This document shows positions 14,476 to 61,355 of a stretch of 64,000 nt of DNA, one piece after another. The notes beneath the pieces are model-generated. The model made no database searches. It saw only the letters and a list, made by a program, of their open reading frames with translations, and was not told the origin of the DNA. The stretch comes from Selenomonas sp. (lineage in GTDB: Bacteria; Bacillota; Negativicutes; Selenomonadales; Selenomonadaceae). The number at the start of each line of letters is the position of its first letter. Position 1 is the stretch's first letter. The stretch lies in NCBI GenBank assembly GCA_018052705.1, contig JAGPMW010000003.1:31451-95450 (forward strand), read 5' to 3'. Made by a program: the position numbers and the translations under genes.

Positions 14476-14550
14476 TGGTGCGCTCGGGCAGAGTCGAACT
14501 GCCGCTTTCAGCTCCGGAGGCTAACGTCCTATCCACTGGACTACGAGCGC
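14476..14550 (-). tRNA. tRNA-Arg (anticodon CCG), CCA encoded
   Basis: The minus strand reads GCGCTCG-TA-GTCC-AGTGGATA-GGAC-G-TTAGC-CTCCGGA-GCTGA-AAGCG-GCAG-TTCGACT-CTGC-CCGAGCGC-A-CCA. This gives a cloverleaf with a 7-bp acceptor stem, a TTCGA T-loop and the anticodon loop CU-CCG-GA. Confidence 0.9.
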
Positions 14551-16681: not shown

Positions 16682-16895
16682 AAAAAGCCCCCGTCCGGAA
16701 AAGGACGAGGGCAAATTCCCGTGGTACCACCTTAATTGGATCGCAAAGATCCGCTCAAAGCCTTAACGCGGCTGACGGTCAGGCTTTCGGTCTGACAGCT
16801 CGTGAGCAGCTTTCCCTGTGTTCATCCGACGGTTTACACCAGCCACCGCCTCTCTGCGGGATATCTGACAGGTACTCGTTCAGTCATTGCTTTTT
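16682..16895 (-). promoter_or_regulatory. T-box riboswitch leader (probable Ala specifier GCU) of the alaR-alaT-like operon
   Basis: On the minus strand: K-turn-like ATGAC, AGTA, AG-bulge AGAGAG and distal GGTG. The specifier-loop 3' side is GGAAA-GCT-G (plus strand 16808-16810). The T-box sequence is AAGGTGGTACCACGGG (plus 16718-16733). The terminator is gccctcgtcc/ggacgggggc + T5 (plus 16682-16712). Confidence 0.85.
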
Positions 16896-16908
16896 TCGAT
16901 ATGAGACA

Positions 16909-23729: not shown

Positions 23730-24734
23730 TCATGCATGAGATCCGCAGGTGCCCGTGCCTTCGGCATCCGGACTGTATTGGTTGGTAAGTCCGAGTTCTT
23801 TCAGCATGTCCATATCTTCTTTTATGGTAGTGCCGGAAGTGGTCAGCATATTGCCAGTGATCGAGGCGGAGGCACCAGCCCGGAAGGCGGTTGCACCATT
23901 CTGGGGCAGAATCTTGCGTCCGGCAGCAAGACGGATATTGGCTGCCGGGTTGATGAAGCGGAAGATGGCAATGGTACGGAGTACGTCATCGGCCGGCAGC
24001 TGTGGGCGCCCTTCCATACCGGTGCCAGGAATGGCCATAAGCGTGTTGATGGGAATCGATTCGATACCGAGCTCCTGCAGGCTCAGGGCCATATCGAGCC
24101 GGTCGTCCCAGGTCTCGCCCATGCCGATGATGCCGCCGGAGCAGACACAGAAGCCCTCGGCCTGAGCCAGCTTGATGGTACGGATACGATCTTCATAGGT
24201 ATGCGAGGTACAAATCTGTGGGAAGAAACGCCGGGAGGTTTCGATGTTGTGATGATAGCTGGTGACGCCGGCGGCAAATAGACGGTGCAGCTGTTCGCGG
24301 CTCAGGAGCCCATGGGAGGCGCAGAGGCCGATGGTCAGGTTTTCTTTCATTTCCTGATAGGCAGCAATGGCTTTGTCGAAGTCTTTGCCGGTCAGGGCGC
24401 GTCCAGAGGTGACGATGGCGAAGCGGTTGGCACCGGCATCCTGATTCGCTTTAGCATTGCGGATGATTTCTTCTTTGGGGAGGAAGTCATATTCGTCGAC
24501 GTCGGTATGGTGGCAGGCGGCCTGCGCGCAGTATTTGCAGTTTTCACCGCAGCGGCCGCTGCGTCCGTTGAGGATGGTGCAGAAGTCGATATGCCTGCCA
24601 CAGAAGTGGTCCTGCAGACGCAGAGCGCCTGCCTGCAGTTCGGCAAGTGGTGCCGTGAGAAAGAAGGAGAGGTCATCACCGCGTTTGATGCGGCGGCCGG
24701 CAATGATCTGGTCGGTAAGTTTAGCGATATTCAT
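23730..24734 (-). CDS. bioB: Biotin synthase BioB (radical SAM)
   Basis: ORF 23730..24734. Radical-SAM motif CGENCKYCAQ and BioB blocks (GANRFAIVTSGR, YHHNIETS, CSGGIIGMGET). Confidence 0.9.
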   Translation of the reverse strand: MNIAKLTDQIIAGRRIKRGDDLSFFLTAPLAELQAGALRLQDHFCGRHIDFCTILNGRSGRCGENCKYCAQAACHHTDVDEYDFLPKEEIIRNAKANQDAGANRFAIVTSGRALTGKDFDKAIAAYQEMKENLTIGLCASHGLLSREQLHRLFAAGVTSYHHNIETSRRFFPQICTSHTYEDRIRTIKLAQAEGFCVCSGGIIGMGETWDDRLDMALSLQELGIESIPINTLMAIPGTGMEGRPQLPADDVLRTIAIFRFINPAANIRLAAGRKILPQNGATAFRAGASASITGNMLTTSGTTIKEDMDMLKELGLTNQYSPDAEGTGTCGSHA

Positions 24735-24772
24735 GAGAAAACCTCGTTTCTGATCAAGAGTGAATTTTACAT

Positions 24773-24808
24773 TGTTAACATTATATAACGATAGAAGTTT
24801 ACGGTCAA
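24773..24808 (-). promoter_or_regulatory. bioB promoter with a possible BirA operator
   Basis: Minus strand TTGACC (plus 24803-24808), 17 nt spacer, TATAAT (plus 24780-24785). The imperfect inverted repeat TGTTAAC-N16-GTTTAC spans the promoter and resembles the TGTAAAC...GTTTACA bio operators. The half-sites are imperfect. Confidence 0.45.
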
Positions 24809-24887
24809 CTTAATATGATTAGTATAGTTTACTATGGAAATTTGCACCAAGGATAAGTTCGAAGAACGAGCAACAATCCTGAATAAG

Positions 24888-25248
24888 GGAGCACAGCGGT
24901 CTTGAAAATTAGACCGCCGCGGAGCCAGCGGACAGTCAACGCTCCACCTGGATGTTCTGCTAAAGAATTTTTTTGCCTTTAATTAAGCATTCCAAAAGGA
25001 GCTAAACGCACTTTGTTTGGACGGACGCTCTTTTGAAACGATCGGTAGTAGGCAAAAAAATTCTTCTTCACGCAGAACATCAAAGCTCCACTTATGACTG
25101 TCCGCTGCCTCTGCGGCTGGGCTTGATGCGTTCAGGGGCTGTTGTCTAAATTAACCATATCGCTGGTTCGTTCATGGAAGTTAAAAGCAGGCAAATTTGT
25201 TCGAATCGAATCCAGACCTGCCAGCAGAAATCAAATTTTACAGGAGCC
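24888..25248 (+). repeat. Copy 1 of an unclassified conserved intergenic element (long bubble-containing hairpin 24911-25123 plus a conserved tail)
   Basis: It aligns along its length with 33410-33794 in the same orientation. The inverted-repeat arms are agaccgccgcggagccagcggacagtc...agaatttttttgcc and ggcaaaaaaattct...gactgtccgctgcctctgcggctgggct. No coding potential is conserved. Confidence 0.8.
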
Positions 25249-25420
25249 TTAACCAATTACCGAGCCCCGTGCTGAGCTTTGACCTACTCGCACCCTGTTC
25301 CTGATTTCTGCAGATAGTCCTTCAGATTCACGTTTATATTGGTGTGTAAATAGAACCAATGGGAATTTCGTGATATAATACTAGACGATATTTTGTTTTT
25401 TATTAGAAAGGGATTAGATA

Positions 25421-27085
25421 ATGCAAGGCTTTTTTCATATATGGCGTGTTCTGTTGGTTCTTTTGTGCCTGTTTATTACCACGCATACGGTTTCTGAGGC
25501 GCGGCAGGCGAAGAAAGCCGTGCCGAGTCCTCCGGTTGTTCAACCGGCAGCGCCTGGGGCAATGGGGAAAATCCTCTTTATTCCGCATGATGACAGGCCG
25601 ACCTCCTGTGAACAGACAGCTGCCGTTGTAAGGAAACTGGGCTATGAAGTCGTTATGCCGGATAAAAAACTGCTGGGAGGACTGGGGACAATAGGCGATA
25701 CTGAGGCGCTGTGGAAATGGACCCGTGATAACGTATCTGGCGCCAAAGCGGCGGTAATTGCTACGGATTCACTGCTTTATGGCGGTCTGGTTGCCTCGAG
25801 AAAACATGAGATTCCAGACTGGCAGCTGCAACGGCGTACTGCCCGTTTACGGGAATTGCGGGCTGAGAATCCGAATCTCAAGATATATGCATTTGCGTCA
25901 CTGATGCGGACTCCGCGTACCGGTGAGGCTTCGGGCGGAGAGGACCCGGATTATTTTTTGCAATATGGCAGTCAGCTCTTCCGCTATACTGCCTTGATGG
26001 ATAAGACTGAAACTGTCGGGCTGACAACGGATGAGGAATGGGAACTTAGCCAGTTGGCTGATGCGCTGCCACCAGACATCCTACAAGACTGGTTTGGCCG
26101 GCGGCAGCGTAATCTCGCATCAACCAAAGCGCTGATGGATGAGGTGCGGCAGGGAACACTGGATTATCTGTTGATCGGCAAAGACGACAATGCACCTTTG
26201 TCACAGACGCATAGAGAAGCCCGCTGGCTTATGAAATATGGACAGGACCTGCCTAAATCCAAGTTTCAATTAGTGGCAGGTATTGATGAATTTGCTATGC
26301 TGCTGCTGGCCCGCGCGGTAAATGATGACCAGAAACTGGTGCCGAAGGTTTATGTGCAGTTCAACGTCGGCAAGGGGGGAGCTACCGTGCCCACCTATTC
26401 GGATGAGCGGGCAGCGGATACCATTAATGAAGAATTGTTCATTGCCGGCGCGGTTTCTGTCAGTGAGCCGGCACAGTCGGACTATGTACTGCTGGTCAAT
26501 ACCAATCCTGATGGAACGACCGGTGAAGCCAACCATATAAATCCGGATGAGGGGCGGCTGCTTAATAATGGGGCAGATCGTGCCGGGACGAAGCCGTTCT
26601 TCGAACAGATTCAGACCATGCTGCAGGCCGGGTATCGGGTTGGTGTGGCTGATATTGCCTTTACGAATGGATCGGATAATGCATTGATGCATCAATTGCA
26701 GACGGCCGGTTTGTTATTCCGGCTGCAGACTTACTCCGGCTGGAATACCGCAACGAACAGCATGGGTTTTGCGTTGGGACAGGGAATGCTGGCCACCCGC
26801 CTGCGCCTTGAAGACTGTCAGTCACTATTGCTGACCAGATATCTGGATGATTGGGCCTATCAGGCCAATGTCCGCACAGCGATGGCATACCGGATCAATC
26901 AGATTGCTGATCCGTCCGTTTATCTTTATCTGGGCGATTATGAACCGTCCATTGCCATGGAGACACGACAACGCCTTATGACGTTTGCCCGTCTGCACTT
27001 GCCAGCGGAGGTGGTCCCGTCCTCTTTGCAGGTATCTTTTCCCTGGCATCGCATGTTTATTGCGGACATTCAGGGGAGTAAATAA
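25421..27085 (+). CDS. DUF4127 family protein with N-terminal signal/anchor sequence
   Basis: ORF 25421..27085. It has a hydrophobic N-terminus followed by KILFIPHDDRPTS, which resembles the DUF4127 N-terminal motif (I-x-x-P-x-D-x-RP). The assignment is from memory. Confidence 0.55.
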   Translation: MQGFFHIWRVLLVLLCLFITTHTVSEARQAKKAVPSPPVVQPAAPGAMGKILFIPHDDRPTSCEQTAAVVRKLGYEVVMPDKKLLGGLGTIGDTEALWKWTRDNVSGAKAAVIATDSLLYGGLVASRKHEIPDWQLQRRTARLRELRAENPNLKIYAFASLMRTPRTGEASGGEDPDYFLQYGSQLFRYTALMDKTETVGLTTDEEWELSQLADALPPDILQDWFGRRQRNLASTKALMDEVRQGTLDYLLIGKDDNAPLSQTHREARWLMKYGQDLPKSKFQLVAGIDEFAMLLLARAVNDDQKLVPKVYVQFNVGKGGATVPTYSDERAADTINEELFIAGAVSVSEPAQSDYVLLVNTNPDGTTGEANHINPDEGRLLNNGADRAGTKPFFEQIQTMLQAGYRVGVADIAFTNGSDNALMHQLQTAGLLFRLQTYSGWNTATNSMGFALGQGMLATRLRLEDCQSLLLTRYLDDWAYQANVRTAMAYRINQIADPSVYLYLGDYEPSIAMETRQRLMTFARLHLPAEVVPSSLQVSFPWHRMFIADIQGSK

Positions 27086-27098
27086 CGCCGGAAAAAAC

Positions 27099-27150
27099 AA
27101 GGTCAAAAGGTCAAAAAAGTATTTGACTTTTTGACCTTATTCGGTATAAT
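27099..27150 (+). promoter_or_regulatory. clpB promoter overlapped by a dyad-symmetric fourfold GTCAAA operator (CtsR-like half-sites)
   Basis: aaGGTCAAAaGGTCAAAaaagtatTTTGACtttTTGACCtt has its symmetry centre at 27118/27119. The -35 TTGACT (27123-27128) lies inside the right arm, followed by a 16 nt spacer and the -10 TATAAT (27145-27150). Confidence 0.65.
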
Positions 27151-27227
27151 AAGAATTAGAAACGGAGCCGTTCATGAAGCAAACGTCCGGCAGGCAGCCG
27201 GGCAGAAATGATTACGGAGGAATAAAT

Positions 27228-29801
27228 ATGGGACAGGAAAAATATACAGCCAGGACATTGGCCGCATTGCAGTCTGCACAGCAGCTGGCGGCAATGCGTT
27301 ATCATCAGGAAATTACTTCCGCGCATGTGCTGTTGGCGTTGGCCAAGGAGCCGGAGGGGCTGCTCGCGACAATCTTTGAAGATTGTCAGGCTGACCTGCC
27401 AATGCTCAAAGCGCGTCTGGAACAGGTGCTTAACAAGATTCCGAGTGTGAAGGGGACAGATCGTCTTGGTATGGGCATGGATATGGTCCGTGTGCTGGGA
27501 CGGGCGGAGCAGCTCGCTCAGTCGATGAAGGATGAGTATGTATCGACGGAGCATCTTTTGCTGGCACTAGCTATTGATGGCAGCGATGAGGTGCAGGAAA
27601 TCTGCCGCAAATTTGAGCTGACGAAGAGTCATATCCAGAGCTCCATCAAGAAGAACCGCAAACAAAATGTGACAAGTGAAAATCCGGAGGAAGGCTATAA
27701 GTCATTGGAGAAATTTGGCCGCGATTTGACCGATGCGGCTCGTCATGGCAAACTTGATCCGGTAATCGGGCGTGACGAAGAGATTCGCCGTACCATTGAA
27801 ATCCTCTCGCGCCGTACCAAGAACAATCCGGTACTCATCGGTGAGCCGGGTGTCGGCAAGACGGCCATCGTTGAGGGGCTGGCCCGCCGTATCGTAGCCG
27901 GGGATGTGCCGGAATCATTAAAGAATAAGACACTGTATTCTTTGGATATGGGGTCATTGGTTGCCGGCGCGAAGTTCCGTGGTGAATTTGAGGAGCGGTT
28001 AAAAGCAGTCCTCAATGAAATTGCAAAATCCGACGGCCAGATCCTGCTGTTCATCGATGAAGTGCACACTGTGGTTGGCGCGGGGGCGGCTGAGGGCGCG
28101 ATGGATGCTGGTAATATCCTGAAACCAATGCTGGCCCGTGGCGAATTGCGCTGCATTGGTGCGACCACGCTCAACGAATATCGGAAGTATATTGAGAAAG
28201 ATACAGCGTTGGAACGCCGTTTCCAGCCGGTTATGGTTGGTCAGCCAAGCGTAGAGGATACCATTTCCATCTTGCGCGGGCTGAAGGAACGCTATGAGGT
28301 ACATCATGGAGTCCGCATCCGTGATGCAGCCCTGGTGTCGGCAGCGGTGCTTTCTGATCGCTATATTTCTGATCGCTTCCTGCCGGATAAGGCTATCGAT
28401 CTGGTCGATGAGGCAGCAGCTAAACTGCGCACCGAGATTGAATCTATGCCGGCACCACTCGATGAGATTCGCCGCAAGATCATGCAGCTCGAGATCGAAG
28501 AACAGGCGTTGAAAAAAGAAACAGATGAGGCTTCCCAGGAAAAGCTCAATGGCATTTCTGCTGAGAAGGAGACTCTACAGCAGCAGGAAAATGAACTCAA
28601 GGCCAAATGGGAAGCCGAGAAACAGGCTATTTTGCGTGTCCGGGCCATCAAGAAGGAGATCGATGAGGTCAACAGTCAGATGGAAGAAGCGGAGCGTGCC
28701 TATGATCTGAACCGCATGTCCGAACTGAAATACGGCAAACTGCCGGAACTGCAGAAAAAACTGGCAGAGGAAGAAGCGGTGATTGCCACGAAATCCAAGG
28801 ATGAGCAGCTGCTCAAAGAAGAAGTAGGCGAGGAAGACATCGCCAGGGTAGTGAGCCGCTGGACAGGTATTCCGGTCACCAAGATGCTGACAGGGGAACG
28901 CGAGAAGCTGATTCATCTGGAGGATGTACTGCATGAGCGGGTAGTCGGTCAGGAGGAAGCAGTAAAGGCAGTCAGCGAAGCCATCCTGCGTGCCCGCGCG
29001 GGGATCAAGGACCCGAACCGCCCTATTGGTTCATTCATTTTCCTTGGCCCGACGGGCGTTGGCAAGACAGAACTGGCCAAGACGCTTGCTGAGTCATTGT
29101 TCGATGATGAGCGCAGCATGATCCGTATCGATATGAGTGAATACATGGAGAAGCACAGCGTATCCCGTCTGATCGGTGCGCCTCCGGGATATGTCGGTTA
29201 CGATGAGGGCGGGCAGCTGACAGAGGCAGTTCGCCGCCATCCGTACAGTGTCATTCTGCTGGATGAGATCGAGAAAGCCCATCGGGATGTGTTCAATGTC
29301 CTGCTGCAGATTCTTGATGATGGCCGACTGACCGATGGCAAAGGCCGGGTGGTGAACTTTAAGAACACGGTCATCATCATGACCAGTAATCTCGGTTCCC
29401 ACGAGATCCTTAACAAAAATTACGAGGAGGCCAGGGGCGCGGTCAAGGATATCCTGAAGGATTATTTCCGGCCGGAGTTCCTCAACCGTGTCGACGATAT
29501 TATCGTGTTCAAGGCTCTGGCGAAAGAGCAGGTCAAAAAGATCGCAGCGATTCTGCTCGGGGCATTGGGGGCACGGCTGGAGCGTCAGGTCAAGATTACG
29601 CTTGGCTGGAATGATGCATCCCTTACGGCGCTGGCAGATCAGGGCTTTGACCCGAATTTTGGGGCCAGACCATTGCGTCGTCTGCTGATTCATACCGTGG
29701 AGACCGCCCTTTCCAAGGAAATTATCAAAGGCGAAATCCGCGAAGGAGATACGGTCAATATTGGTTTTGAAGCTGGCCAGTTTACATTCCAAAAAGTATA
29801 A
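27228..29801 (+). CDS. clpB: ATP-dependent chaperone/disaggregase ClpB
   Basis: ORF 27174..29801, start ATG 27228 after GGAGG. It has two AAA+ modules ([18 protein letters not shown]) and a long middle coiled-coil. ClpB blocks include [22 protein letters not shown]. Confidence 0.92.
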
Positions 29802-29812
29802 ATAGTACTTGC

Positions 29813-29845
29813 AGTCCCGGTTTTATGTAAGCCGGGACTTTTTAT
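29813..29845 (+). terminator. Intrinsic terminator after clpB
   Basis: Stem agtcccgg / ccgggact followed by tttttatt. Confidence 0.75.
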
Positions 29846-29945
29846 TGCCGGCAGCGATCCGTGGCTGCAATCGGCTGGTGGCGGTTTGTTTTGACTATGC
29901 CATGGGTGTATAATGAACCGATAAAATGTGAAGAAGTGATGGAGT

Positions 29946-31199
29946 ATGTCAAAAAAAAGAGCGGAAACGTTACTGGAACTGCGTGAACCTGACTATATGG
30001 ATGCGTTTGTCTGTACCGGCGGACTTTGTCCGGATACCTGCTGTCAGGGCTGGGAAATCGTCATTGATGAAGCAACGTGCGACCGCTATGCCAGGACAGC
30101 GGATGATGAAGTGCGAGAGCTGCTGGGACGCGCGATCGTCCATCGGCAGGAAGAACAGGCCGATGGGACAATGGATGATGTGGCGTGTATCCGTATGGGC
30201 AAGGGGCAGCGGTGCCTTTTCCTGCGCAATGACGGGTTGTGCATGATCCAGCGCAAGACCGAGGAAGGCAACCTGTCTGAGACGTGCCGGACTTATCCCC
30301 GGGTTATTTATTGCTGGAATGATCATTATGCGGAGCGGGCACTTTGTGTGTCCTGTCCTGAGGCTGCCAAGTTGATTCTGGGTCAGGATAAGCCGTTGCA
30401 TTTCCATACCCGTGAATTGGCAGAAGAGGAATTGTCCGGCTTGCGCATTACTGATGCAGGCGAACATCTCCGGATGGATTGTCTGCCGCTGCGGCGTTTT
30501 ATCGTACATATCCTGCAGGCCCACGGGCAGCCGCTGGCCGACCGGCTGCGATTGGCTGATGATTATTTCTGGGAGGCGGCACTAATTGGCGGGCATCATG
30601 CGGGCCGGCAGCAGTCGCGTCTGCAGGCGGCATATGCTATACAGCTGCGGCCGGAGCACGATCCAATTACTGGCGAACGGCCGGATTCAAGATGGCGGCT
30701 CGAGCAGCTCCAATGTCTGTTGCAGCTGCGGCTCCGAAATCCAGAACTGCGGCTGGATTTTCGGCAGCGGATTGAGTCTGCGCTGGCTTATTGGCACCTT
30801 GAGGATCAGGCGGCCGTTACCGCCGCGAGTCTGGCCCGCTATGAGGAAGATGAAGAAATCTATCGGGCCTTTTTTCTGCCTGTTTATGAGTTGCTGCTTG
30901 AAAATTATCTGGTTAATGCCGTGTTCAAAAACCTGTTCATTACCGAGGAGCAGCCGGACTACTACCGGGAATGGCTGCGGCTGGTCTTGCAATTTTCGCT
31001 GGTCCGTTTTCTACTGATAGCCCAGCTGGCGGACTATCAGCAGGTACCTGAGCGTCAGGCTGTGATCGATTTGATTCAGCAGACTACGCGTGCGGTCGGG
31101 CATGACAGTCTATATCTTGATCAGGCCGCTGCCGGTCTCGCCGCCGGGCAGGATAAGGCCACGGCATTTAGAACTTTTTGCCTGAAAATGTTGGCCTAG
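29946..31199 (+). CDS. Flagellin lysine-N-methylase (FliB)-like Cys-rich protein
   Basis: ORF 29946..31199. The N-terminal pattern FVCTGGLCPDTCCQGWEIVIDEATCDRY matches the FliB/YkgJ-type cysteine cluster (F-x-C-x-G-x-x-C-x-D-x-CC-x-GW-x-I). Confidence 0.65.
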   Translation: MSKKRAETLLELREPDYMDAFVCTGGLCPDTCCQGWEIVIDEATCDRYARTADDEVRELLGRAIVHRQEEQADGTMDDVACIRMGKGQRCLFLRNDGLCMIQRKTEEGNLSETCRTYPRVIYCWNDHYAERALCVSCPEAAKLILGQDKPLHFHTRELAEEELSGLRITDAGEHLRMDCLPLRRFIVHILQAHGQPLADRLRLADDYFWEAALIGGHHAGRQQSRLQAAYAIQLRPEHDPITGERPDSRWRLEQLQCLLQLRLRNPELRLDFRQRIESALAYWHLEDQAAVTAASLARYEEDEEIYRAFFLPVYELLLENYLVNAVFKNLFITEEQPDYYREWLRLVLQFSLVRFLLIAQLADYQQVPERQAVIDLIQQTTRAVGHDSLYLDQAAAGLAAGQDKATAFRTFCLKMLA

Positions 31200-31209
31200 A
31201 TTGGGTATA

Positions 31210-31238
31210 TTGACTTCTATAACGAAATGGGTTACAAT
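31210..31238 (+). promoter_or_regulatory. Sigma-A promoter of the glmS leader
   Basis: TTGACT (31210-31215), 17 nt spacer, TACAAT (31233-31238). Confidence 0.65.
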
Positions 31239-31324
31239 ATGCGAGTGCTGTGGAATACGGCGCATTTTGAAGAAATCCAGAGAAAATATCCTGTTGTTCT
31301 GGTGTATTGAAAAGGATAGGGAAA

Positions 31325-31505
31325 CCTATTTTTAGCGCAAGTTCTCGTGAGACGCGTTCATTGAACGGTTCATGAGAAGACGAGGAGAAGGTTGTCGAAT
31401 AGTCAGCGGATGCCTTCCGGCCGGTCCGGTCGATAGAAAACGGTTAAATCCCAGGCGTGAGCGTGGGGAAAGAGCGGTTGCAGGACACAACAGGGCACAA
31501 CTTCA
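31325..31505 (+). ncRNA. glmS ribozyme (GlcN6P-dependent self-cleaving riboswitch)
   Basis: It carries the cleavage-site context A-GCGC at 31334-31338. Conserved core blocks are AAGACGAGGA, GGUUGUCGAAU and GCGGAUGCCUUCCGGC. It lies directly upstream of glmS. Confidence 0.9.
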
Positions 31506-31519
31506 TAGGAGGTACTATT

Positions 31520-33349
31520 ATGTGTGGTATCGTAGGTTATGTCGGTGACAAACAGGCAGCGGAGTTCCTGCTGGAAGGTCTTTCCAAGCTGGAGTATCGT
31601 GGCTATGACTCGGCAGGTATTGCTGTCTATAATGATGGTAGTATCCGGGTAGAGAAAAGTGTAGGCCGTCTGGCTTCACTGCGCGATAAGATCAAGGACG
31701 ACGTTCCGCAGGGGACGATGGGCATTGGTCATACCCGCTGGGCTACGCATGGCCGTCCGTCTGATGCCAACTCGCATCCGCATACGGACTGCTCCGGTGA
31801 TTTCGTCGTTGTCCATAACGGCATCATCGAGAACTACCTGACGCTCAAAGAGGATCTCATTGAGAAAGGGCATGCTTTTAAGTCCGAGACGGATACAGAG
31901 GTCGTAGCTCATCTGCTCGAAGAGATCTACAATGGAGACTTTGTGTCTTCGGTCCGCGAGGTACTGCGCCGTATCGACGGTGCATATTCCCTCGTATTCA
32001 TGAGCAGCAAACATCCGGGAATGCTGATTGCCGCCAAGCAGGATAACCCGCTGGTCATTGGTATTGGCGAGGGTGAGAACTTCATTGCTTCGGATATCCC
32101 GGCGATCATCCAGCGTACCCGCCGCACCTACATCCTCAACGATGGGGAGCTGGCTGTACTCACGAAGGATTCCATCAAGATTACCAACCGTCAGGGTGAG
32201 CCCGTGACGAAGAAGGTATTCGAAGTCAACTGGAATGCTGAAGCGGCTGAAAAGGGCGGCTATGAGCATTTCATGCTCAAGGAAATCCATGAGCAGCCGA
32301 AGGCTGTCCGTGACACGATGAGCCAGCGCATTGCCAAAGATGGCAAGTCCATTGTTATGGATGAGCTGAAATGGGATGCGGATTATCTCAATTCCTTCAA
32401 CAAGATCTATATTGTTGCCTGCGGCACAGCTTATCATGCCGGTCTGGTGGGCAAGTTCTATATCGAGAAGCTGGCGCGTACGGTGGTCGAGGTCGATGTG
32501 GCTTCCGAGTTCCGTTATCGTGAGCCGATTGTCGACGAGAATACGCTGTTCATTGCGGTTTCGCAGTCTGGTGAGACGAGTGATACGCTGGCAGCGATGA
32601 AAGAGTCCAAGCGCCTTGGTGCGAAGACGCTGGCGCTGACCAATGTGGTCGGTTCGTCCATTGCCCGCGAAGCCGATCAGGTACTCTATACCTGGGCTGG
32701 CCCGGAGATTGCTGTTGCCTCGACGAAAGCCTATACGACGCAGATTGTATTGTTCTTCATGCTTGCGCTTTATATGGCCGAGATCAAAGGAACGCAGAAG
32801 CCGGAACGGGTGGCAGAGCTTATCGCTATGCTCAAGGATATCCCAAATGGCATTGGCAATACGTTGTCGGATGTTGAACCAATCAAGACTTTTGCGAAGC
32901 AGTATGGCTTCAATGAGGATGTGTTCTACATTGGCCGCTCGCTGGATTATGATGTCGCACTCGAAGGCTCGCTGAAGCTCAAGGAGATTTCCTACATTCA
33001 TGCTGAGGCTTATGCGGCTGGTGAACTTAAGCATGGTACGCTGGCCCTGATCGTTGAGGGTGTGCCGGTTATCGCACTGGCTACGCAGAAGAGTGTCTAT
33101 GAGAAGACGCTCTCCAACATCAAAGAGGTTAAGGCTCGTGATGCCGTTGTTATCGGTATTGCTTCCGAGGGCGATGAGGAACTGGAGAAGTATGTGGATC
33201 ATGTTATCAGGATTCCGGAAACGGATGAGCTCCTGATTCCTATCCTGGCGGTAGTTCCATTGCAGCTCCTCGCTTACTATGCCGCAATCACGCGTGGCTG
33301 CGATGTAGATAAACCACGCAACCTGGCAAAATCTGTTACGGTTGAGTAA
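31520..33349 (+). CDS. glmS: Glutamine--fructose-6-phosphate aminotransferase (isomerizing) GlmS
   Basis: ORF 31457..33349. The true start is ATG 31520 (MCGIVGYVG, with the catalytic Cys at residue 2), preceded by AGGAGG. The C-terminus is the canonical KSVTVE. Confidence 0.95.
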   Translation: MCGIVGYVGDKQAAEFLLEGLSKLEYRGYDSAGIAVYNDGSIRVEKSVGRLASLRDKIKDDVPQGTMGIGHTRWATHGRPSDANSHPHTDCSGDFVVVHNGIIENYLTLKEDLIEKGHAFKSETDTEVVAHLLEEIYNGDFVSSVREVLRRIDGAYSLVFMSSKHPGMLIAAKQDNPLVIGIGEGENFIASDIPAIIQRTRRTYILNDGELAVLTKDSIKITNRQGEPVTKKVFEVNWNAEAAEKGGYEHFMLKEIHEQPKAVRDTMSQRIAKDGKSIVMDELKWDADYLNSFNKIYIVACGTAYHAGLVGKFYIEKLARTVVEVDVASEFRYREPIVDENTLFIAVSQSGETSDTLAAMKESKRLGAKTLALTNVVGSSIAREADQVLYTWAGPEIAVASTKAYTTQIVLFFMLALYMAEIKGTQKPERVAELIAMLKDIPNGIGNTLSDVEPIKTFAKQYGFNEDVFYIGRSLDYDVALEGSLKLKEISYIHAEAYAAGELKHGTLALIVEGVPVIALATQKSVYEKTLSNIKEVKARDAVVIGIASEGDEELEKYVDHVIRIPETDELLIPILAVVPLQLLAYYAAITRGCDVDKPRNLAKSVTVE

Positions 33350-33373
33350 AAAAGTTAAAAAGTAACGACCAAT

Positions 33374-33407
33374 AGTCGCAGTGAAGTATTTCGCTGCGGC
33401 TATTTTT
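33374..33407 (+). terminator. Intrinsic terminator after glmS
   Basis: Stem agtcgcag / ctgcggct followed by attttt. Confidence 0.65.
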
Positions 33408-33409
33408 GT

Positions 33410-33794
33410 GGAGCACTACGGCCTGCTGATCGTAACGAACCGGGATTGGCAGAAATAAGACCGCCGCGAGGACAGTGCCTAGCCAACGTTCCACCTGGGT
33501 AACCTGCTAAAGAATTTTTTTGCCGTTCAATTAAGCATTCCAAAAGGAGCTAAACGCACTTCGTTTGAACGGACGCTCTTTTGAAACAATCGGTAGCAGG
33601 CAAAAAAATTCTTCTTAACGCAGAACACCAAGGCTCCACTTATGGCTATGCGCTGCCCACGCGGCTGGGCTCGATGTATAAAGGCTTGTTGTGTCTTAAA
33701 GCTACATCCCGAGTTCATTAATGGATGTCAAAATTGAGCTCATCTGCTCGAATCAAATCCAGACCTGCCAGCAGAAAAGGATTTTAGCAGCAGC
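33410..33794 (+). repeat. Copy 2 of the unclassified conserved intergenic element (hairpin 33458-33671 plus a conserved tail)
   Basis: It aligns with 24888-25248 in the same orientation. The stem sequences differ from copy 1 by paired (compensatory) substitutions. It has a 33-nt insertion in the first small hairpin loop. Confidence 0.8.
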
Positions 33795-33914
33795 CGGAAC
33801 GATTGACGGTGGGCGAGGGGAAACTTTATGGTCGCGGAGATTCAGGAAAAGAGGTATAATAAAGCAGATTGGATTTTAATGATGATTGGATAAGGAAAAA
33901 GGTGAATATATTCT

Positions 33915-34949
33915 TTGCAGCAGGCATTAGAAAAGCAGATTATCTTTAAAGATCATAAAGAAGCCTATTCTCTTTTGGGGGAACGGGATCAATTCCTGCA
34001 GGTGCTTCGGGATAGTTTTGACTGCCAGTTCGTCAGTCGTGGCGATCAGGTAGAAATCCTGGGCGAGAGTTCGCAGGTGGGACCGGCAGCGAAGGTCATG
34101 GAGGAACTCCAGTACCTTTATCGTCAGGGCACGACGATCACCATGCATGAAGTCCGCTATGGAATCGGACTTGTCAAAGGCGGCAAGGGCGAGGCCCTGC
34201 ACACGTTGTTTGGCGATACGATTCTCGTGACTTCGCGTGGACGGCATGTGCGGCCAAAGACATTGGGACAGCGGCTTTATCTCGATACCATCCGGCACAA
34301 TTCCATCACGTTTGGTATTGGGCCGGCCGGGACAGGCAAGACGTATCTGGCCGTGGTTATGGCTGTGGCGGCTTTCCGCAATAAAGAGGTCAATAAGATT
34401 ATCCTGACGCGGCCGGCAGTGGAGGCTGGTGAGCGGCTGGGATTCCTGCCGGGCGACTTGCAGGACAAGGTTGATCCATATCTGCGGCCGCTTTATGATG
34501 CCTTGCAGGACATTCTTGGGCAGGACACCTATCAGAAGCTCATGGCCAAGGGCATCATTGAGATTGCCCCGCTGGCTTATATGCGCGGGCGGACGCTCGA
34601 AGATGCATTCATCATTCTGGATGAGGCTCAGAACACGACGGATAAGCAGATGAAGATGTTCCTGACCCGTCTGGGATTCGGCTCCCGCATGGTCGTTACG
34701 GGCGATCTGGGACAGATCGATCTGCCGCGCGGCGTAACCTCTGGTTTGCGTGAGGCCTCTCAGATCCTTGCTGGCGTCAAGGGGATCGGCGTTGTCCGCA
34801 TGGCACCGATGGATGTCATCCGGCATGAGGTGGTCACGCGCATCGTGGAGGCCTATGGTGACTGGGAAGCCAAAAAGAAGAAGGCAAAGGCCGAGGCAGA
34901 TGCCGCCAGAACGGTACGTCCAGGCCGGAATCAGGAGCAGAAAGGGTAG
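33915..34949 (+). CDS. phoH: PhoH family ATPase
   Basis: ORF 33915..34949 (TTG start). Walker [13 protein letters not shown], and PhoH blocks [18 protein letters not shown] and DEAQNTT. Confidence 0.9.
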
Positions 34950-46663: not shown

Positions 46664-46739
46664 TCCTCGATAGCTCAGCCGGTAGAGCACCTGACTGTTA
46701 ATCAGGCTGTCGCAGGTTCGAATCCTGCTCGAGGAGCCA
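46664..46739 (+). tRNA. tRNA-Asn (anticodon GUU), CCA encoded
   Basis: TCCTCGA-TA-GCTC-AGCCGGTA-GAGC-A-CCTGA-CTGTTAA-TCAGG-CTGTC-GCAGG-TTCGAAT-CCTGC-TCGAGGA-G-CCA. Confidence 0.92.
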
Positions 46740-61096: not shown

Positions 61097-61355
61097 CATA
61101 TAATAGAATAGCAGGGAAGAAGAGGAGTACAGCATTCGGGCGGCTCAGCGAGGAGACGGCAGGTGAAAGTCTTTGCGACGGATGGTGGAAGGTAGCTTCG
61201 GAGCTGCCGGGCTGAATCTGGCATGCCAGGGTAGGTCCGGTCGTCAGGCCGCGTTAAGGCTGTGAGTCCCGCATCCATGTTACTGGCTGCAGGAGAAGAT
61301 TGGTGGTACCACGATAGCAGACGCTTTCGTCCTTTTGGACGGAGGCGTTTTATAG
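61097..61355 (+). promoter_or_regulatory. T-box riboswitch leader, Val specifier (GUA)
   Basis: AGTA, specifier-loop GGAAG-GTA-G (GTA at 61192-61194). The T-box sequence AGATTGGTGGTACCACG has UGGU, matching the A73 discriminator. The terminator is acgctttcgtcc / ggacggaggcgt + ttta (61321-61355). Confidence 0.9.

Follow-up and report, generated by a model that had tools for sequence, protein, structure and literature searches.

Structured intergenic palindromic repeats of Gram-negative bacteria include the ERIC/IRU, BIME, and REPIN sequences, and compensatory changes are reported to preserve pairing in REPINs. Non-autonomous repeats of the MITE type include the Correia, RUP, and BOX elements. 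6S RNA, which binds the sigma-70 holoenzyme and templates a product RNA, is encoded by a housekeeping gene that is present in one or two copies and is conserved among related species. The cwpV switch of Clostridioides difficile terminates read-through in one orientation only. Invertons are segments that lie between inverted repeats of 10-40 nt and are flipped by invertases; a single genome may carry, at several loci, groups of them whose repeats and interiors are homologous (PMC11892184).

The 64-kb stretch of DNA analysed here (the window) contains two similar structured sequences that a first-pass annotation took for an unclassified element of ~360 bp and likened to 6S RNA, a MITE-like palindromic repeat, or a shared cis-regulatory leader. 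We consider it fairly probable that this element is the hairpin-plus-tail core of two degenerate, immobilized copies of a mosaic, protein-free, invertible or mobile repeat of ~750 bp. The finding is outside the RNA family library; instead of standing alone as an RNA element of 360 nt, it belongs to a larger DNA repeat. Among the three likenesses first suggested, the MITE-like palindromic repeat came nearest to the comparative data.

Window copies and the full-length unit

The two look-alike copies are real: positions 24906-25248 and 33453-33795 of the window were 80.3% identical over 346 nt on the same strand (BLASTN, E 2e-85), and each contains an imperfect hairpin of ~215 nt. The start first given for copy 2, 33410, was ~40 nt too far left. 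BLASTN found no third copy in the 64-kb window, and no copy lies in ~15 kb beyond the window ends, giving this genome only two copies in ~80 kb.

The neighbors of the copies are housekeeping genes (bioB, clpB, glmS with its ribozyme, phoH, glyQS, dnaG, and rpoD), with no recombinase among the annotated genes around them. Copy 1 lies between the divergent bioB promoter (TTGACC-17-TATAAT, 24780-24808, minus strand) and the DUF4127 promoter region (25340-25385). The DUF4127 promoter is of the extended -10 type (TGATATAAT) and is outside the element, in a region conserved with locus L020 from the element's end onward. Identity of the window's ClpB protein is 97% with its counterpart in 'MAG: Selenomonas sp.', 90% with the S. 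caprae protein, and 89% with the Mitsuokella protein; DUF4127 genes identical to that of the window are present in sewage and other metagenome assemblies. Gene order around clpB is DUF4127-clpB-fliB-glmS-phoH in the window and DUF4127-(thiME)-clpB-deacetylase in L020 and other Selenomonas loci; in a comparison of window 24000-34500 with L020, both copies were at the edges of a rearranged block. The window also has Rfam matches at gathering score to a Moco riboswitch, two T-boxes, and a glmS ribozyme (at 1106-1242, 16698-16896 on the minus strand, 31323-31491, and 61105-61337), as well as two tRNAs (14479-14550 on the minus strand and 46664-46736).

Relatives of the element were reached by several routes. 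Exact-pattern scans gave only L016 and L017, the two orthologous loci of one close relative, which were matched in metagenome contigs by the tail block. A protein search with a spurious ORF from the element led through P0001 to L018 and through P0002 to L019, both diverged copies that consist of the hairpin only. Contigs of ClpB homologues yielded L020, a Selenomonas MAG shown by BLAST to have two full-length copies (L020_a and L020_b), plus ten contigs encoding the same ClpB protein (L033-L042). Another 'protein', P0003 (432 aa, outside the window), was an unrelated chance match; its regularly repeated peptide blocks LWFAEKFVSLLIEQH / VVICWKIRIFAYWTTP suggest that a CRISPR-type repeat array was annotated as a gene and translated.

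The full-length unit is ~750 nt long, and L020_a and L020_b are 88% identical over 756 nt. It consists of a ~125-nt 5' extension, the 215-nt hairpin, and a ~125-nt tail with the block TCGAATCGAAYCMAGACCTRCC, followed by a junction block GGGCGAGGGGAAACT, a ~190-nt GC-rich module, and a right-end module that starts ACCGARCCCCGTGCTGAGC. Terminal inverted repeats of 13-19 bp (GATAAACNGGAAG...) occur at both ends of L020_a, L034_b, and L033; those of L020_a, GATAAACTGGAAGTTGCAG and GATAAACGGGAAGTTACAG, match at 17 of 19 positions. Full-length copies occupy entire intergenic regions. Homology to them extends in the window over both spans given as whole remnants in Table 1, which is why a ~360-bp unit is not a correct description. 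As for the reported lack of IS-like ends with a target duplication, the window copies do lack them because they are truncated; their full-length relatives have terminal inverted repeats. That the window copies share no conserved ORF was confirmed, and neither a conserved ORF nor a Pfam domain was found in the 750-nt unit. A 132-aa ORF of L020_a, considered for coding potential, belongs to no Pfam family and is broken in L020_b by frame-shifting indels.

Table 1. Parts of the two element copies in the window and the basis on which each was delimited
Feature	Coordinates	Strand	Basis
Copy 1, whole remnant	24855..25338	+	Homology to L020 copies from 24855
Copy 1, 5' extension remnant (AAGTTCGAAGAACGAG...)	24855..24904	+	Alignment with 5' extension of L020_a and L020_b
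Copy 1, hairpin module with type-A apical cassette	24905..25130	+	Covariance model R1 (251.7 bits), inverted repeats, fold, covariation
Copy 1, tail, with invariant block TCGAATCGAATCCAGACCTGCCAGCAGAAA at 25201-25230	25131..25255	+	Conserved in six copies
Copy 1, right-end module (ACCGAGCCCCGTGCTGAGC...)	25256..25338	+	Matches right-end module of L020_a/b, L017, L034_b
Copy 1, degenerate right inverted repeat CACGTTTAT	25329-25337	+	End of right-end module
Copy 2, whole remnant	33451..33825	+	Span of homology to L020 copies
Copy 2, hairpin module with type-A apical cassette	33452..33678	+	Covariance model R1 (251.8 bits), fold
Copy 2, tail, with invariant block at 33748-33777	33679..33804	+	Alignment, conserved block
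Copy 2, junction block GACGGTGGGCGAGGGGAAACT	33805..33825	+	Site of ~225-nt deletion relative to L017 and L020

Copy 1 is truncated at its 5' end, with loss of the left inverted repeat, and has lost ~190 nt internally relative to full-length copies; the junction block and GC-rich module are missing. It retains a degenerate right end at ~25338, where ...CTTCAGATTCACGTTTAT corresponds to the right inverted repeat of L034_b and L033 and adjoins the same DUF4127 promoter flank. Copy 2 begins at the hairpin base and stops at GGGGAAACT, so that both ends of the full unit are missing. In its orthologue L017, copy 2 is followed by ~225 nt more (2730-2960), made up of the GC-rich and right-end modules and flanked by 8-bp direct repeats GGGAAACT; judged from this alignment, the window strain apparently lost the extra stretch by deletion between the GGGAAACT repeats. 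Both window copies, with one or both ends gone, are probably frozen. Within each of them the motif AAWTNAGACCNGCC occurs twice in direct orientation, at the 5' hairpin base and inside the invariant tail block (24905-24925 and 25201-25225 in copy 1; 33452-33470 and 33748-33772 in copy 2).

Element copies differ from one another by 12-30% and occupy at least three distinct sites, namely upstream of DUF4127, downstream of clpB or glmS, and between folD and fhs, where the lone hairpins of L018 and L019 are found in another organism. No direct repeat that might be a target-site duplication flanks L020_a, L020_b, L034_b, or L033, no recombinase or transposase gene is within 10 kb of any copy examined, and among the loci examined the end pattern is present only in L020 and no autonomous element has the same ends. 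Assemblies break repeatedly inside the element ends. In L018 (8420-8891), 17 nt past the base of the hairpin-only copy, the 3' end of folD recurs imperfectly and in inverted orientation, where the orthologous contig L019 has fhs; this inverted copy carries substitutions and indels and is therefore not a simple fold-back assembly artefact. In L033 (6460-7551), clpB and the element are followed by genes for RNase E/G and a radical-SAM protein, rodA, and minCDE in place of the polysaccharide deacetylase locus, and the element has an extra insert of ~88 nt within its GC-rich module; at the L033 junction, either the element was the site of a rearrangement or a further copy made the join.

Only one Selenomonas lineage has the repeat. 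No copy was present at six loci (~120 kb in total) of other species of the genus, S. caprae among them, also when searched with covariance model R1, which found no further diverged copies in the ~395 kb examined; the spacer from clpB to the deacetylase gene is 57 nt in element-free Selenomonas loci vs ~880 nt where the element is present. BLASTN of plasmids and phages with the 361-nt core or the 771-nt full unit gave no match, nor did viral contigs. A search of genome contigs for the exact pattern CATTCCAAAAGGAGCTAAAC returned only chance matches of 20-21 nt, mostly in Streptococcus; L018 itself differs from this pattern (CATTTC).

The hairpin module and its strand sense

All of the hairpin stems listed by the first-pass annotation were found again, by complementarity and in the minimum-free-energy fold. 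From its base upward, the hairpin of copy 1 has a GC-rich stem, an internal loop ('bubble'), several short helices, an A/T helix of 16 bp, and an apical domain. Segments 24916-24938 and 25095-25117 are 91% complementary over 23 nt, 24951-24960 and 25072-25081 are complementary at 10 of 10 positions, the A/T stem lies within 24963-24998 and 25030-25065, and AAAAGGAGC and GCTCTTTTG are paired in the minimum-free-energy fold. Each copy, on either strand, folded better than its dinucleotide shuffles: z was -4.8 (copy 1) and -3.5 (copy 2) for the plus strand and -6.7 and -5.2 for the minus strand; the minus sense folds more stably than the plus sense in both window copies.

A covariation test, which the first-pass annotation had proposed, was made on an alignment of eight sequences. 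Standard pairs filled 95.8% of the pair cells, 22 of the 66 pairs had compensatory changes on both sides (vs 0-3 in slid controls), and none of 500 shuffles reached the hairpin's values for pairing and covariation; we take this comparative signal to indicate that the hairpin is under selection to pair. Particular features are conserved as well. They include a basal AGRCCGCCG/CGGCTGGGCT helix together with its bulges, an internal loop CAACRYTYC... opposite ...GCTSCRYTTATGG that is kept in all copies, and the apical 5' loop TTTAATTAA; CTGCTAAA and TTCTTNACGCAGAAC are likewise conserved.

The apical ~100 nt come as two collinear cassette types that are ~65% alike, within each of which the apical 70 nt are nearly invariant. 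Type A (GGAGC/GCTCT) is present in the window copies, L016, L017, L018, L034_b, and L035_b, and type B (AGACT/AGTCT) in L019, L020_a, L020_b, and L033_b; L018 and L019 have different types at one locus. This distribution bears on the proposal that three GCTC(C/T) segments compete for a Shine-Dalgarno-like GGAGC. The GGAGC is not conserved in relatives, since AGACT/AGTCT replaces GGAGC/GCTCT in L020; and because the two sides of the apical pair change together while the bubble strands remain GCTCC-like, the bubble is not an alternative partner. The heptamer GCTCCAC does stand on both bubble strands in the window copies as reported, but not in relatives (L020 has ATTTCGC opposite GCTCCAT). The 8-nt palindrome TTAATTAA (24979-24986 and 33528-33535), which lies unpaired in the 5' strand of the apical internal loop, is invariant in every copy of both types.

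Of the ~125-nt tail, only the sequence block TCGAATCRAAYCMAGACCTRCC is conserved across six copies. The second stem-loop that the first-pass annotation placed there is not: no structure is consistent among the six, and the consensus folding energy is only ~-6 kcal/mol. The tail (GTTCGAATC...CCA) was also considered as tRNA- or tmRNA-like, but had no ARAGORN or Rfam match and no conserved pairing.

Complementary arms could in principle persist without selection. A decaying selfish palindromic repeat with no cellular function might have its arms kept complementary by template-switch (quasi-palindrome) correction and gene conversion, and the mosaic and truncated copies, the exchange of cassettes among copies, the deletion between 8-bp direct repeats, and the inverted flank duplication in L018 would all suit such a history, as would the balance of G.T and A.C mismatches, which is expected of a process at the DNA level. 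Correction of this kind should not, however, spare loops and bulges, whose sequences are conserved; a perfect palindrome occurs in 0 of 10 copies, the apical 70 nt hardly vary within a cassette type, and the tail block, which is not palindromic, is conserved too. We therefore regard a functionless repeat as very unlikely.

The strand on which the hairpin might act was sought in several ways. Counts of G.U vs A.C favor the plus sense for the apical helices but the minus sense near the bubble and are balanced overall, so they are uninformative as to strand. The balance fits a structure at the DNA level, and equally RNA produced in either sense as the element turns. Read in the minus sense, 9 of 10 copies have a U-rich tract just past the hairpin base, with 5-7 T in 10 positions vs 1-4 in the plus sense; this UAAUUUC-like tract is not continuous, and the stem before it encloses a structure of 200 nt. 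Promoter prediction gave no sigma-70-like promoter inside L020_a or L020_b, inspection by eye for sigma-54 or sigma-70 promoters found nothing conserved, and L020 lacks the TAAAAT that precedes the tail in the window copies.

These data bear on whether the copies form a family of independently transcribed genes for structured small RNAs, acting as a 6S-like decoy of RNA polymerase or otherwise, with the hairpin as the mature RNA and the inverted repeats and flips as incidental. The strong covariation, the conserved internal loops, the rod with a central bubble of 6S-like size, and the minus-sense U-rich tract would all be expected of such genes, and the element is ~72% identical between genomes whose DUF4127 genes are themselves only 73% identical. 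On the other hand, no promoter is conserved, the TAAAAT included, the G.U vs A.C asymmetry points to no strand, the copies are bounded by inverted repeats or truncated, and related species lack the element at the same loci. The proposed Rfam scan of the whole window at gathering score gave no match to the element, whose unclassified status therefore stands, and scans at E<=10 of copy 1 (cmscan, 24700-25450) and of L020 5600-6700 found no relevant family and no 6S RNA; E-value scans of L016-L018 also gave nothing relevant. The statement that the element is not a T-box, riboswitch, tmRNA, RNase P, or SRP RNA agrees with these scans and with ARAGORN, which found nothing in the elements of L017, L019, or L020. 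A 6S-like RNA is not supported, since there is no model match, no conservation in related species (the element is absent at the six loci), and a number of copies per genome, in both orientations; a small-RNA family in general seems to us quite unlikely.

Orientation at two sites

Strains that share one ClpB protein carry the element in both orientations at two sites, a (upstream of the DUF4127 gene) and b (downstream of clpB). At site b the orientation is minus in L020, L035, and L039 and plus in L033, L034, L036, L038, and L042. The flanks of L020 and L034 are collinear there at 97-98% identity (L020 12300-12667 with L034 5904-6270, and L020 13399-13719 with L034 6980-7300), with the element between them reversed (L020 12720-13412 with L034 6949-6258). 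The junctions are inside AAACTGGAAG and GTTTATC, i.e., the breakpoints fall within the inverted repeats. At site a the left end of the element adjoins DUF4127 in L020, L034, L035, and L036, and the right end does so in L033 and window copy 1, which have the same junction GTTTAT(C). Contigs of opposite orientation came from independent samples and different assemblers; both orientations were observed between strains.

The age of these events may differ between sites. L020 and L033 have a common flank haplotype and opposite orientation at site a, so that the event looks recent, whereas at site b orientation is linked to a few bases beside the junction (the flank haplotype) and the event may thus be old and rare. 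Orientation variants are 84% identical in the interior vs 97-98% in the flanks. Because the interior diverges so much more than the flanks, replacement by recombination with other copies also occurs. Recombination between the two copies cannot explain the changes at the junctions, from which we infer that each element was turned or replaced in place. All four combinations of orientation and cassette type were found at site b.

The inverted repeats are probably acted on by a recombinase or transposase whose gene lies at another place in the genome, and this putative enzyme would flip the segment, or excise and re-insert it. The hairpin is probably needed as an intrastrand structure, which could form in DNA, either in a cruciform or in a single-stranded intermediate, or else in RNA of the sense that the element's orientation at the time happens to expose. 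Taken further, the hairpin could represent a new class of structured nucleic acid that belongs to a family of invertible elements flipped in trans, and could serve as a portable terminator or insulator cassette that depends on orientation, or as an RNA or single-stranded-DNA cofactor of the recombinase, with cassettes A and B as specificity modules and the TTAATTAA loop as a contact or dimerization site. This extension is a doubtful one.

With the U-rich tract behind it in the minus sense, the hairpin could be an orientation-dependent terminator or an RNA-stabilizing stem. The former could make the element a phase-variation switch, an inverton in which, as in the cwpV switch, hairpin and U-tract stop read-through in one orientation only and so set expression of DUF4127-thiME-clpB or of neighboring genes. 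Both orientations at two sites, with breakpoints within inverted repeats, agree with such a switch, as do the restriction of the U-rich 3' flank to the minus sense and terminator-like calls at the minus-sense hairpin base in four copies. Against it, site b is between convergent genes that each have their own terminator, and the DUF4127 promoter is outside the element. The lack of a nearby invertase gene, the tie between orientation and flank haplotype at site b, and the 66-bp interrupted stem, unusual for an intrinsic terminator, argue against it as well, and we judge a switch of this sort unlikely.

A cis-regulatory leader shared by DUF4127 and phoH would accord with the window, in which each copy is upstream of, and co-oriented with, a plus-strand gene. 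The promoter-like sequences of those downstream genes, however, lie after the element, and copy 2 itself comes after the glmS terminator. Of the two L020 copies, the one before DUF4127 is inverted and the second lies between convergent genes, and the L019 copy is antisense to folD-fhs. Copies are thus sense, antisense, between convergent genes, or behind a terminator; because orientation and context vary in this way, a leader RNA is extremely unlikely.

Comparison with known systems

The resemblance to 6S RNA is one of shape: the ~215-nt hairpin module is a ~66-bp rod with a central bubble of ~12 by 14 nt. Unlike 6S RNA, the element has no match to the Rfam 6S model and no defined promoter, is multi-copy and invertible or truncated, and is not conserved in related species.

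Likeness to ERIC/IRU, BIME, and REPIN sequences is closer, in that the element is a long, imperfect intergenic palindrome and a mosaic of modules that probably forms hairpins in transcripts or single-stranded DNA; its pairing, like that of REPINs, is preserved by compensatory changes. Its hairpin is nevertheless at least twice as long, has large conserved internal loops, and is set inside a larger unit bounded by inverted repeats, in a lineage of the Negativicutes; and no RAYT-like gene was seen.

With MITEs the element shares small size, terminal inverted repeats, an intergenic location, multiple copies in either orientation, the lack of an ORF or transposase, and presence or absence between related species; its modular build recalls BOX elements in particular. 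It differs from MITEs in having no target-site duplication and no known parent insertion sequence, in copies that are 12-30% different rather than near-identical, and in a polymorphism that consists of a change of orientation at the same site and not of insertion at new sites.

As in invertons, short terminal inverted repeats (13-19 bp; one or both lost from the window copies) bound a non-coding interior, homologous copies exist at several loci, and the same segment is seen, between strains, in both orientations between unchanged flanks at two loci. Differences from invertons are that no invertase gene is within 10 kb, no promoter is predicted inside, one of the sites is between convergent genes, the interior is ~750 bp and dominated by a covarying hairpin of 215 nt, and truncated and hairpin-only copies exist.

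How much this matters depends on how the flips arise. If they are old and rare, the element would be one more lineage-specific mosaic repeat, of modest interest; in practice, metagenome assemblies break at it, and it marks where these genomes have been rearranged. If an enzyme drives the flips, the copies would belong to a family of non-coding invertible elements in the Negativicutes, for which we found no described example (literature searches gave nothing on such elements in Selenomonas or the Negativicutes), and their cargo would be a large, selected hairpin rather than a simple promoter. They would then allow the dependence of an RNA or DNA structure on orientation to be tested and would link structured intergenic repeats, MITE-like mobility, and phase-variable inversion, which are usually studied apart. 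The best reading of the comparison is that the element is closer to invertons, MITEs, and ERIC sequences than to 6S RNA or a leader.
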